From NCBI GenBank assembly GCA_028716745.1, contig JAQUPE010000001.1, positions 30,203 through 94,202 of the forward strand: a stretch of DNA of 64,000 nt, in the 5' to 3' direction. Position 1 is the first letter of the stretch, and each line of letters begins with the position of its first letter. Source of the stretch: Minisyncoccota bacterium (GTDB lineage Bacteria > Patescibacteriota > Minisyncoccia > UBA6257 > 02-FULL-45-10c). The notes beneath the pieces are model-generated. The model was given only the letters and a program-made list of their open reading frames with translations, ran no database searches and had not been told where the DNA came from. Below, piece by piece: positions 6,504-39,522 of the stretch. The position numbers and the translations under genes are program-made.

Positions 6504-8543
<2,040 letters not shown>

Positions 8544-29962: not shown

Positions 29963-29993
29963 ACGCGCCGTTTGAAAACGGCGTGTTTTTTAT
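29963..29993 (+). terminator. rho-independent terminator after rplL
   Basis: acgcgccg-tttgaaaa-cggcgtgt + T-run. Confidence 0.65.
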
Positions 29994-30011
29994 TTATAGT
30001 AGTAGGGAAGC

Positions 30012-30083
30012 GGACGCATAGTTTATCGGTAAAACGTCGCATTCACATTGCGAAGACGATAGGTTCGACTCCTATTGCGTCCA
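30012..30083 (+). tRNA. tRNA-Val (CAC)
   Basis: Manual fold: acceptor ggacgca/tgcgtcc (perfect), D-stem gttt/aaac with atcGGta loop, anticodon stem tcgca/tgcga with loop ttCACat, T-arm atagg-ttcgact-cctat, discriminator A. Confidence 0.7.
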
Positions 30084-30203
30084 CAACGAGGTCACAGGTT
30101 TCCTGCCCGGCCGTAGCCCCGTAACGCGGGGCGAAGGAGGGGATCCCTGTATTGTCCACAGAAAATCGCTTTAATTGTGGGTTTTTGGTAGAATTATTAA
30201 AAC

Positions 30204-31070
30204 ATGAAAGAATCTGTTATTCCAAAATTAACTAACGACTCTTTGGCCAGACAGCTTATCTCTTTGTATGAGACATTCAAAGACAAAGATTTAAAAAATA
30301 ATGAGGATATAAATTTTAGTTTGTCTGAGTTGGATTGGGCTTGCCCTCTTTTAATTTTGCCCGTTGCCTCTTATATTGCTAGTACAAATAGTAATTATTT
30401 AATTGATGACGATAATAAGATTAAATCTTATTTAGAGACAATCAAATTTCCAGATGGCATTAATTCTGTTTCTGATTTTAAAAAGCGAATATTTAAAAGT
30501 AAAAATTATATACCAATTAGTATTTTGAAAAGAGAAGGCTCTATCGAGCGCGAAAGACTCGAAAGTATATTCACGGAGTTGATTTATAAAATTGTGGATA
30601 GGGCTAATGTTAAGGGATTAAAAAATGTTATTTGCCACCCCATTGCAGAATTGGTAACAAATATATTTGAACATAGTAAGAAGGATGAAGGATTCGTTTT
30701 TGGACAATATTATAAAAATAAAAATATATTAGAAATATGTATAGTTGATAGAGGAAGGGGATTGGCCAATGCATATCAACAGGAGAATGAATTAAAATTA
30801 TCGGACGAAGAGGCTATTGGCGAAGTTATGAAGGGGCACTCTACTAAACCAGATAAGGAAAGGGGTTATGGAGTCAGAACCTCAAAAAAAATCGTTTGTG
30901 GGGCACTAGGCGGCGAGTTTGTTATTTTATCTGGCTCTGCTGCATTAATATCTACTAAAGAAAAAGACAGATTGATAGCTTTGCCAAATTTCTATTGGCA
31001 AGGCGTTGTGGTTGCCTATAGGATACCCATACCCGAGACACCAGTTGATATTAGCCCATATTTAGAGTAG
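30204..31070 (+). CDS. GHKL-type (histidine-kinase/anti-sigma-kinase-like) ATPase domain protein with unknown N-terminal domain
   Basis: Bergerat-fold motifs: N-box AELVTNIFEHS, G1 VDRGRGL, G2 ERGYGVRT; AT-rich gene. Confidence 0.55.
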   Translation: MKESVIPKLTNDSLARQLISLYETFKDKDLKNNEDINFSLSELDWACPLLILPVASYIASTNSNYLIDDDNKIKSYLETIKFPDGINSVSDFKKRIFKSKNYIPISILKREGSIERERLESIFTELIYKIVDRANVKGLKNVICHPIAELVTNIFEHSKKDEGFVFGQYYKNKNILEICIVDRGRGLANAYQQENELKLSDEEAIGEVMKGHSTKPDKERGYGVRTSKKIVCGALGGEFVILSGSAALISTKEKDRLIALPNFYWQGVVVAYRIPIPETPVDISPYLE

Positions 31071-31093
31071 GCTGTTATTTCTTATGTTATAAT

Positions 31094-31480
31094 ATGAATA
31101 TATATAAATTAATAACTAAAATTATGAATAAGAGTCCTAAGGTCGTTATAAAAGTAGCTAAAGTGTTAGCTCCGATATTAGGTTCGCGAGATGTAATTGA
31201 TTCTCTTAAATCTTACATATTGAAATCTAATGAAAAGATGGTGGTTTTGGATTTTAAAGATGTGCAATTTATTTCTCGCTCAGCTGCGCATGAGCTCCTT
31301 TTGATTAAAGAAGAATTATCTCAAAAAAATAAAGAATTGTCTTTTGAGAATACGAATGATGATATTGCTGAGATGTTGCGAGTAGTAGCTGCAAATAGAG
31401 CATTGCCAAAGTCTGAAAAGATACAATTTAGGCCCGAAAAGATTAATATAAATTCTTTAAAAAAAGAAGTGCTTGCTTAA
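31094..31480 (+). CDS. STAS-like (anti-sigma-antagonist-like, DUF4325-type) protein
   Basis: VVLDFKDVQFISRSAAHELLLIKEEL resembles the STAS core; immediately follows the GHKL ATPase gene. Confidence 0.4.
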   Translation: MNIYKLITKIMNKSPKVVIKVAKVLAPILGSRDVIDSLKSYILKSNEKMVVLDFKDVQFISRSAAHELLLIKEELSQKNKELSFENTNDDIAEMLRVVAANRALPKSEKIQFRPEKININSLKKEVLA

Positions 31481-31536
31481 TAGTTTGTTTAATTGATGTT
31501 TCGGGTTGGTTACAATTAGATAAAAAATAATAATTT

Positions 31537-32238
31537 ATGATATTATTTCGTTTTATTTTTGCAATTTTAATTTCACCATTTAGGTGGATTACAAATATTT
31601 TTAAGCATAAAGATAATGTTTTGGAATGGCATTTTAACTACGGGCCGTCCTTTGTAAAAGTACAAACAAAATATAAAGAACAATTTTTAGCTGATGATTT
31701 ATTAATAGCTAGTTACATCCTTTTTTTAGCTAGATATTTTTATATTTGTGACGATAGACAAATAAATATAATTAAAGATTCTTTATTAAACTCAGTAAAA
31801 GAGTCTGAGAAACCGAAAGAAATTACTGTTAAATTTTATAAATCCATATTTCACACATTAAGCCAAGCGGAACAAAATGCAGTAGCGGCATTATTTAGGC
31901 CTTTTTCATTTTTACCTACTCCACCCCTTACATACTCCGAAAATGAAGAACCCAAACATTCATTTGCTAAATATTCATTTTTGATTTTTAAAATTGGTAA
32001 TCAATTGGTTGCAAATTTTCACATGTCTTATGGACCAGATATTATATTACTTCCTTTAACTTGTGGGATTTTATATGAATATATTACAAATACAATTAGG
32101 AATAAAGACAAGAAAGAGAAGTTAGATCAGTCAATAATCGATTTATTAGAAGCTTATAAATTTATAGATTGTCGTTCATTCGAAGGACTTAGGGAATTGC
32201 CAGTTAAAATTATTAATAAAAATAATTTAAATTATTAA
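31537..32238 (+). CDS. hypothetical protein (no recognisable motif), third gene of the AT-rich island
   Basis: 233-aa ORF, hydrophobic N-terminus, very AT-rich; followed by the hairpin tccgcatttaatgcgga + T-run. Confidence 0.4.
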   Translation: MILFRFIFAILISPFRWITNIFKHKDNVLEWHFNYGPSFVKVQTKYKEQFLADDLLIASYILFLARYFYICDDRQINIIKDSLLNSVKESEKPKEITVKFYKSIFHTLSQAEQNAVAALFRPFSFLPTPPLTYSENEEPKHSFAKYSFLIFKIGNQLVANFHMSYGPDIILLPLTCGILYEYITNTIRNKDKKEKLDQSIIDLLEAYKFIDCRSFEGLRELPVKIINKNNLNY

Positions 32239-32598
32239 AAGATAATTTTCTAATCATTAGTACTATAAAAGTGAGGAAATTCCCTCTGTTAATATCTTTT
32301 CAGAGAACCCCCATTTATCCGCATTTAATGCGGATTTTTTATCCACTTTATTATCTTTACAATGGGGAGAAGTGGAGTAATATAAATCTTAGGTGGGGGA
32401 AAGTGGATAACTATGGGGATAACTACCGAATCTGGGGATAAGTATTCCGTTGTCCTCTTATTTCAACCCACTTCGCGAATCCAGCGATTCGCTCGTTTGT
32501 CCTCGCTGATTCGTCCGCTGCGAGCGGAACCATGCCGAATCAGCTCCGGGGGTTTCAATAAGAGAACAACTACATTTTAAAATTTAAATAAGAAAAAT

Positions 32599-38325: not shown

Positions 38326-38418
38326 AGGCTGGTTTGAATAGTTAGTATTAAAAATCAAAATATTCAGATCTTTAAAATTAGAAAATAAAGCAAAATAAAT
38401 ATTCAAAGGAGAGGGGCC

Positions 38419-39522
38419 ATGAAGGGACCAGTTGGATTTGTAGGTTGGAGAGGGATGGTCGGATCGGTGCTGATGCAGAGGATGCTGGAAGAGAACGACT
38501 TCGTCGACATACCTGAGAGGCATTTTTTCAGTACTTCTCAGGTAGGCCAGAAGGGGCCGGACATTGCGGAAGGCCGGAAGCTGGAAGATGCCAACAGCGT
38601 AGAGGCGCTGAAGAAGTGCGAAATCATCGTTACTTGCCAGGGCGGGGACTGGACGAAAGAAATGTACCCGAAGATCCGGGCAGACGGCTGGAAGGGTATC
38701 TGGATTGACGCGGCCTCAACGCTGCGCATGGATCCGGAGAGCGTCATAGTTCTTGACCCGATTAACGGAGACCTGATTAAAAAGGCGATTAGCGACGGAT
38801 GCAAAACATTCGTCGGCGGCAATTGCACTGTCAGCTTGATGCTGATGGCGTGCCACGGCCTTTTTAAGAACAATCTGGTCGAGTGGGTGAGCTCTATGAC
38901 CTACCAGGCAGCTTCGGGCGCCGGCGCCAAGCATATGCAGGAACTGATTCGCCAGATGAAATTCATCGGCGAAAAGGTTGACCCTGCCACGACCGCGCTC
39001 GAGCTCGACAGGATAGTGACGGAAAGGATGGACCGCGCCGATTTTCCGAAGGAAAATTTCGGCGCTCCTTTAGCCGGCAGCTTGATTCCCTGGATTGATA
39101 TCGAGTGGGGCAGCGGCCGGACGAAGGAAGAGTGGAAGGGATACGCCGAGGCCAACAAGATTCTGGGAACCAAAACTCCTATTCCGATCGACGGACTTTG
39201 CGTTCGGGTGGGAGCCATGCGGTGCCACAGCCAGGCGTTGCTAATAAAGCTGACCCGCGACGTACCTCTGGATAAGCTGAAGTTCATGATCGGCAGAGAA
39301 GCGAACGAGTGGGCGAAGTATGTTTTCAACGACAAAAAGGAAACACTCGCGTCTCTCACTCCCGCTGCGGTATCCGGAACTCTGGACGTTGCCATCGGCC
39401 GTTTACATAAGGCTATGTATGGCCCGGAATATCTCCTTGCTTTTACGGTAGGCGATCAGCTCCTCTGGGGAGCAGCCGAACCGGTGAGAAGGACTCTGCA
39501 GATTTTCTTAGGAAATCTGTAA
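38419..39522 (+). CDS. asd: aspartate-semialdehyde dehydrogenase, E. coli/proteobacterial type (high G+C)
   Basis: High end-to-end similarity to E. coli Asd (VGFVGWRGMVGSVLMQRM..., IIVTCQGGD, TFVGGNCTVSLMLM, YQAASGAGA, GSLIPWID, GLCVRVGAMRCHSQ, AFTVGDQLLWGAAEP). Confidence 0.92.
   Translation: MKGPVGFVGWRGMVGSVLMQRMLEENDFVDIPERHFFSTSQVGQKGPDIAEGRKLEDANSVEALKKCEIIVTCQGGDWTKEMYPKIRADGWKGIWIDAASTLRMDPESVIVLDPINGDLIKKAISDGCKTFVGGNCTVSLMLMACHGLFKNNLVEWVSSMTYQAASGAGAKHMQELIRQMKFIGEKVDPATTALELDRIVTERMDRADFPKENFGAPLAGSLIPWIDIEWGSGRTKEEWKGYAEANKILGTKTPIPIDGLCVRVGAMRCHSQALLIKLTRDVPLDKLKFMIGREANEWAKYVFNDKKETLASLTPAAVSGTLDVAIGRLHKAMYGPEYLLAFTVGDQLLWGAAEPVRRTLQIFLGNL

Follow-up and report, generated by a model that had tools for sequence, protein, structure and literature searches.

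A toxin-less VapK/VapS-like gene pair lacking helix-turn-helix domains, in a variable slot beside tRNA-Val of a Minisyncoccota genome

What does a kinase gene coupled to a STAS-domain gene control when no recognisable output is encoded next to it? The question is posed by an A+T-rich block in a 64,000-nucleotide stretch of a metagenome-assembled Minisyncoccota genome, one of the Candidatus Pacebacteria within the Patescibacteria (contig JAQUPE010000001.1, positions 30,203 to 94,202; hereafter ‘the window’, in whose numbering coordinates are given). Three co-oriented open reading frames, all on the plus strand, lie there between a tRNA-Val gene and mraZ: ORF1 (30204..31070, 288 aa, deposited as PHN74_00375), ORF2 (31094..31480, 128 aa) and ORF3 (31537..32238, 233 aa, deposited as PHN74_00385). 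A preliminary description had presented them as a single mobile islet built from a GHKL ATPase, a STAS-like protein and a protein without recognised motifs. That interpretation is partly supported, for a kinase/STAS pair does occupy an inserted block, while the unity of the three genes does not hold. The locus is a toxin-less, helix-turn-helix (HTH)-less variant of the recently described VapK/VapS kind, and ORF1 and ORF2 (K and S below) probably constitute a self-contained two-gene phospho-switch of the CapK/CapS superfamily, with an output partner that is not encoded in cis.

The systems that serve as the principal comparison are those of Chambers et al. (EMBO J 2026, PMC13373217), cited here for the part of the article that deals with CapK/CapS and VapKSC. 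There, CapK has the order HTH-STAS-GHKL, and CapS, a STAS-winged-HTH protein, is a repressor of adjacent immune operons; single-stranded DNA (ssDNA) activates CapK, which phosphorylates CapS Ser54 (PMC13373217). VapKSC consists of the kinase VapK, the STAS antitoxin VapS and the PIN toxin VapC; Ser48 is the proposed phosphorylation site of VapS, F54 of VapK (W68 of CapK) is the proposed ssDNA-stacking aromatic, needed for activation by ssDNA, and E. coli carrying the operon was protected against one phage (PMC13373217). VapK and VapS sequences were taken from the AlphaFold3 files of that article; CapK was compared by domain architecture only.

ORF1 is composed of two domains. Residues 113–288 (30540..31070) form a GHKL serine-kinase domain of the anti-sigma-factor class, whose N-box, G1 and G2 boxes, already picked out in the preliminary description, were invariant in 91/91 ORF1 homologues (E149/N153, D182-x-G184-x-G186 and G221-x-G223); the HATPase_c match in Pfam was sub-threshold. 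Residues 1 to ~112 (30204..30539), formerly taken for an unrelated domain, have instead strands and helices alternating in the manner of a STAS-like domain, with the arrangement seen in VapK. In the AlphaFold2 model (predicted local distance difference test, pLDDT, 88.8) a strand at residues 2–5 is followed by a helix at 14–25, a strand at 36–39, a helix at 48–60, a strand at 64–66 and a helix at 74–79. Profile-profile alignment with ORF2 placed Cys47 at the phospho-serine position, which fits a degenerate STAS domain that is not itself a substrate. Close by, position 45 (W in ORF1) was W or F in 91/91 members of the clade and aromatic in 119/126 members of the wider family, and P48 was kept in 91/91 clade members.

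The relationship to VapK extends over both domains. A hidden Markov model (HMM) of the ORF1 family scored 32.8 bits on VapK (E = 2e-9), whereas the best of 1000 shuffled controls reached 5.6 bits. Both ORF1 and VapK (E = 3.6e-38) matched phrog_3364 over their full length. Global profile alignment (hhalign) was collinear (ORF1 1–279 with VapK 12–302, probability 92%), setting W45 against VapK F54 and P48 against VapK P57; N153 likewise aligned to VapK N160. The two proteins share ~22% identity (33 bits), and VapK matched 48/150 representatives of the wider ORF1 family, several of them over both domains. This two-domain kinase family is large: it counts 3,700 representatives at E ≤ 1e-3 and still 245 when the threshold is lowered to E ≤ 1e-30, most of them 280–310 aa long. 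Judged by sequence, ORF1 is a predicted degenerate-STAS plus GHKL serine-kinase protein of the VapK/CapK superfamily, most likely an active kinase whose STAS and kinase domains would together form an ssDNA-sensing groove.

ORF2, which begins directly downstream, is a VapS-like STAS/DUF4325 protein, in line with the fold proposed in the preliminary description. Its Pfam STAS match (28 bits) exceeded the 22.6 cut-off, and among 37 family members 27 matched STAS and six DUF4325; VapS is itself a DUF4325 protein (62.7 bits). The triplet S61-R62-S63, at the start of helix 2, was invariant in 37/37 members, phage and archaeal homologues included, and VapS S48 aligned to S61. Three motifs common to ORF2 and VapS occur in collinear order (G-[ST]-R, LDF..V..F.S and RVV..N..R). 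Beyond the STAS domain ORF2 carries a C-terminal tail of ~25 aa, and Pfam detected no HTH family in any of the 37 members. Translation may in fact begin at the ATG at 31124, which corresponds to the start position in most homologues.

How regularly do the two genes travel together? A search of 185,579 species genomes yielded 39 loci encoding an ORF1 relative, 48–70% identical over the best aligned segment, a number to be taken as a minimum, since fixed peptide patterns served as the query. An ORF2 homologue followed ORF1 directly in 37/39 loci, and the other two end at a contig edge past ORF1. The closest pair, in locus L003, shares 70% (ORF1) and 80% (ORF2) identity with that of the window. 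What follows the pair varied from housekeeping genes (IF3, SecDF, LemA, an eIF2B-like gene, a permease) to accessory ones (DUF3800, HicB-like, PD-(D/E)XK, an IS200 transposase); the next ORF of ≥60 aa was convergent in 13/39 loci, and the gap to a co-directional next gene was usually 100–300 nt. From these mixed or convergent neighbours and wide gaps it follows that the pair is normally a self-standing bicistron. It was more A+T-rich than its flanks in 35/38 loci (mean difference 4.1% G+C) and had a tRNA gene within 500 nt in 7/39 loci (2.0 expected, P = 0.004). One pair came from an Omnitrophota metagenome-assembled genome (MAG), at the level of identity seen among genomes of the Candidate Phyla Radiation (CPR). 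The ‘uncultured Gammaproteobacteria’ labels on several MAGs with typical CPR-clade pairs (L010, L021, L023, L035, L040) look unreliable. In L030 (98–4995), IS200-family (Y1) transposase genes stand at both ends of a ~4.4-kb segment holding a K/S pair, an arrangement like that of a composite transposon.

The kinase domain invites a second reading, a classical partner switch in which ORF1 would be an anti-sigma factor sequestering a sigma factor encoded at a distance and ORF2 its anti-anti-sigma factor, as in SpoIIAB/SpoIIAA or RsbW/RsbV. The best structural matches of ORF1 were indeed SpoIIAB, RsbW and UsfX, weak NCBIfam matches named spIIAB, RsbW and an anti-sigma antagonist family, and one homologue is labelled ‘anti-sigma regulatory factor’ in one source. 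However, anti-sigma kinases are single-domain proteins of ~140–160 aa, whereas the 288 aa of ORF1 include an additional N-terminal STAS-like domain that they lack. The ORF1-family HMM, for all its score on VapK, found nothing above 14 bits across the whole PDB (only VraS, E = 0.16), and no SpoIIAB or RsbW chain at E ≤ 1. Neither a sigma factor nor a PP2C phosphatase was linked to the pair at the window locus, in agreement with the preliminary description, or at any of the 39 loci, and the pair's distribution is sporadic, mobile and partly phage-borne. A partner switch is thus an unlikely account of the locus.

The VapK/VapS-type reading rests on several points of likeness to VapKSC. ORF1 has the architecture of a K protein (degenerate STAS plus GHKL, no HTH, about 290–300 aa), shares with VapK the N-box motif E..N.FEHSK and carries an aromatic-x-x-Pro motif at the proposed ssDNA groove, and its small STAS/DUF4325 S gene lies directly downstream, with an invariant serine at VapS S48 and a short C-terminal tail. 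Unlike VapKSC, no VapC/PIN gene was present at the window locus or at any of the 39 related loci, so that the pair is not VapKSC in the full sense. The ORF1 clade is also distant from VapK, ORF2 has invariant motifs specific to its clade (S31-R32-D33, S61-R62-S63 and an MLRxVAANRAxPK helix), and the clade belongs mainly to the CPR (Patescibacteria), a group that does not come up in the part of PMC13373217 cited here. With CapK/CapS the pair has in common its kinase-substrate logic, the STAS plus GHKL core and the placing of the S gene directly after K. It differs in that ORF1 starts directly with the STAS-like domain and has no HTH (Pfam, model), that ORF2 has no C-terminal winged-helix DNA-binding domain, and that no recognisable immune operon follows, the downstream genes being heterogeneous or convergent. 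Lacking both the HTH and the winged helix, the pair is not CapK/CapS, and without the latter, transcriptional repression by S is unlikely.

Several results weigh against this reading and should be set beside it. Taken alone, the N-terminal domain of ORF1 showed no significant similarity to that of VapK, and its profile-profile comparison with the ORF2 STAS domain, which aligned the expected segment, was likewise not significant (E = 0.03, probability 1.7%). The pairwise score of ORF2 and VapS was no better (9.6 bits, the best shuffle reaching 8.8), so their likeness rests on shared motifs and family membership. In the PDB the ORF2 profile retrieved only chance uL6 matches and TM1442 at E = 0.42, and no CapS or VapS chain. 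S58 of SpoIIAA aligned to R62 of ORF2, which is not a serine, and hence the phospho-acceptor could be either S61 or S63. PADLOC returned only weak partial matches (the N-terminal part of the DrmA model, 4e-7; PDC-M65A, 1e-4), which were not used and probably reflect a shared GHKL-like segment. All-against-all clustering of the 39 loci revealed no other conserved neighbour, no PIN domain was found among 25 co-directional downstream genes scanned across the pair loci, and the locus and its neighbours yielded no effector or output gene. Finally, K and S have diverged between the window and the relative nearest to it (70% and 80% identity) about as much as housekeeping genes (46–90%), which would also fit long residence and a cellular role other than defence.

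Could the missing output be ORF3? It starts 56 nt past ORF2, co-directional and without an intervening terminator, within the same inserted block, and its product has a hydrophobic N-terminal helix. One may therefore imagine a three-gene toxin-antitoxin or abortive-infection system with ORF3 in the place of VapC, held in check by ORF2. An HTH_XRE gene precedes members of the ORF3 family elsewhere, recalling the regulator swaps of cargo operons described in PMC13373217. Yet ORF3 homologues were present in 0/39 K/S loci, the closest (L003) included, and a K/S pair lay near 0/76 ORF3 loci; the co-occurrence expected of a single module is absent, and ORF1+ORF2 and ORF3 are thus two independent units. 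Their composition differs too (G+C 0.264 for ORF3, 0.32 for the pair), and no PIN, nuclease, toxin or other recognised fold, nor any significant PADLOC match (only Cas10b, at E = 0.019), was obtained for ORF3. We consider such a system quite improbable: ORF3 is a neighbour, a separate accessory gene in the same slot, and not a partner of the pair.

The ORF3 family is conserved, restricted to the CPR and ~237 aa in length. Its members usually belong to a cassette of an HTH_XRE gene (65–70 aa), a variable gene (120, 227 or 254 aa), ORF3 and a conserved 115-aa protein, seen in L042 (4438–6060), L043, L044, L050, L051, L057 and others. The L042 cassette adjoins a serine recombinase and a restriction-modification methyltransferase, and in several other loci an ORF of similar, recombinase size stands beside it. 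The cassette is an uncharacterised CPR accessory module; no remnants of its other genes (HTH, 120-aa, 115-aa) were found in the window.

The surroundings of the block were compared with the same region in relatives. The tRNA-Val(CAC) gene (30012..30084, plus strand; ARAGORN; Rfam 66.9 bits), the three ORFs and the hairpin/T-run beyond them were all confirmed at the positions first assigned to them. Relatives were located through the window's RsmH, and the rplL–mraZ regions of three of them (L125, L126 and L127) were read. The backbone is conserved (pcm-rplJ-rplL … mraZ-rsmH-ftsL, penicillin-binding protein, Mur ligase), with tRNA-Val(cac) in the slot in all three. In L127 the slot is empty, rplL-tRNA-Val-mraZ, precisely the abutting order that had been proposed as a check. 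L126 has a 225-aa gene past the tRNA on the opposite strand (6675–7352, minus), and L125, the closest relative (RsmH 76%, RplL 90% identical), a 194-aa gene ahead of the tRNA (6564–7148); these genes are unrelated to each other and to those of the window. Since the relatives are empty or hold different cargo, the slot is a small insertion hot spot.

The right junction is marked by the 24-mer AAATTCCCTCTGTTAATATCTTTT (32277..32300, plus strand), an exact match to L125 7359–7382, which begins 13 nt past tRNA-Val in L125 and past ORF3 in the window. Its displacement defines an inserted block of ~2.2 kb (~30085–32276) that starts directly 3′ of tRNA-Val. The hairpin and T-run terminator (plus strand; 32317–32335 by terminator scan, 32317..32341 as annotated) had been credited to the islet; it is present as described, but its position beyond the right junction, in sequence common to the relatives, makes it part of the backbone, although it may now terminate transcripts of the inserted genes. 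In L127 a hairpin/T-run comes straight after tRNA-Val. A promoter-like site precedes the tRNA (29972–30000), and because the block stands between the tRNA and the backbone terminator, and the hairpin at its left edge lacks a T-run, the three genes may be transcribed from that site together with the tRNA. The 77-nt G+C-rich hairpin at the block's left edge (30086..30162, plus strand; minimum free energy −30.9 kcal/mol) has no T-run and is for that reason not an intrinsic terminator. It had no counterpart in L125–L127, and the G+C-rich flanking elements gave no Rfam match at a permissive threshold. It ends in TATTGTCCACAG, which bears a weak likeness to the tRNA 3′ end TATTGCGTCCACAA, and might be the scar of an earlier insertion event.

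The claim that the genes are conspicuously A+T-rich was upheld: windowed G+C fell to 0.25–0.33 across 30200–32400, against 0.38–0.46 in the flanks, and by gene it was 0.336 (ORF1), 0.302 (ORF2) and 0.264 (ORF3), the last being the lowest of all window genes (z = −2.9; mean 0.401, sd 0.048). The block therefore resembles tRNA-linked islets in its place directly 3′ of a tRNA, its low G+C (0.26–0.34 versus 0.40), the empty site and the varying cargo of the slot. It differs from them in lacking an integrase ORF and a duplicated tRNA 3′ end, and in its size of only ~2.2 kb. The notion of a tRNA-adjacent mobile islet thus survives as regards empty site, cargo and composition, and not as regards integrase or attachment repeats. 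A classical island flanked by attachment sites was considered and rejected: the direct repeat of the tRNA-Val 3′ end that had been anticipated was not found within 3 mismatches at the far boundary, and no notable direct or inverted repeat flanks the block.

Further features lie beyond the right junction. Ahead of mraZ, GTGGA/TGGGGA boxes recur (32360–32445) and probably serve the dcw cluster as its MraZ operator; L125–L127 share the 20-mer GTGGATAACTATGGGGATAA with the window without a mismatch, though RsmH is only 61–76% identical. Between these boxes and the mraZ start, a 131-nt G+C-rich element (32445–32575; −51 kcal/mol; 21-nt terminal inverted repeats) is shared with L127 and absent from the closer L125 and from L126. 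It has no Rfam match and may represent either a structured leader of sporadic occurrence or a small inserted element of the miniature kind. At a distance, ~1.1 kb of the window (38400–39500) has a G+C near 0.55 (ORF 38419–39522, 0.544) against a window mean of 0.40, and Rfam found no RNA gene in it.

Homologues of the pair also occur on mobile elements. They are annotated as ‘ATP-binding protein’ and ‘DUF4325’ in Bacteroides phage BF1-TP2 and are ORFB and ORFC of the ‘inserted fragment IFa’ of Methanothermobacter prophage psiM100 (record annotation; L002 3640–6432). In a Francisella prophage, the interval from cI to the integrase is occupied by a 293-aa hypothetical protein and, after it, a DUF4325 protein (published annotation, PMC7924643). 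IFa also takes in most of ORFD (492 aa, without a Pfam domain), which starts 12 nt past ORFC. On plasmids there was one distant haloarchaeal match only. These occurrences, and the existence of a PHROG family for ORF1, would suit a gene set that serves phages or other mobile elements (in lysis-lysogeny decisions, superinfection control or counter-defence) and is here a leftover. Such an origin is nevertheless improbable. Neither in the window nor at the 39 CPR loci is the pair flanked by phage genes. When 2.9 million viral contigs were scanned, no viral relatives of CPR-clade ORF1 or of ORF3 emerged, and strong purifying selection in the CPR clade (52–70% identity) argues against a decaying remnant.

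At the other extreme, the pair could be vertically inherited lineage content with a role in housekeeping signalling, its low G+C a product of amino-acid composition. The parallel between K/S and housekeeping identities noted above is what one would expect in that case, and the pair follows rplL not only in the window but in L005 and L032, which represent more distant genomes. Against this, the closest relative carries its pair on another contig (JAQURY010000006, downstream of tRNA-Gln; L003) and has a different gene in its rplL–mraZ slot (JAQURY010000018; L125), the slot of L127 is empty, only 39 loci, a minimum given the fixed-pattern search, were recovered among the 185,579 species genomes, and one match crosses the phylum boundary into Omnitrophota. 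Vertical descent is accordingly the least probable of the explanations weighed here. On the present reading the pair is accessory and moves horizontally, and in this genome it occupies the variable slot that separates tRNA-Val from the mraZ control region.

How might a VapK/VapS-type switch of this kind operate? By analogy with CapK and VapK, ssDNA arising from DNA damage or phage infection would bind in the groove that the two domains of K form, with W45 as its stacking partner. K activated in this way would phosphorylate S on a serine at the start of STAS helix 2 (S61, possibly S63), and S would then be released from a target that it had held through its conserved C-terminal helix and tail; a role in defence or stress would follow from the same analogy. 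Given that no PIN toxin adjoins the pair and S has no DNA-binding domain, the controlled partner would be encoded elsewhere, or would be K itself. In some longer proteins of the wider family the whole K module forms the C-terminal part (P0402, 1266 aa, residues 979–1266; P0414, 527 aa, residues 235–527), and these fusions might reveal the output partner.

We would raise, tentatively and as a possibility rather than an expectation, that stand-alone K/S pairs make up a distinct class, widespread in the CPR and found also on phages and archaeal elements, that works without a toxin or DNA-binding output in cis: phospho-regulated S might act on a conserved host protein whose gene lies elsewhere, or K might be the effector, with S as its pseudo-substrate inhibitor. 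If so, the pair would be a minimal two-gene sensor of damage or infection in organisms with very reduced regulatory repertoires. CapK/CapS and VapKSC, in the 2026 account as cited above, have a DNA-binding domain or a PIN toxin as output; in this locus and ~290 close homologues the sensor-kinase/STAS core is kept, at 52–70% identity across the CPR, with neither. Should the pair be functional alone, a third kind of output must exist, whether a target elsewhere or the kinase itself. Identifying that output would add to the uses known for this sensor module, and could hint at a response to DNA damage or infection in the CPR.

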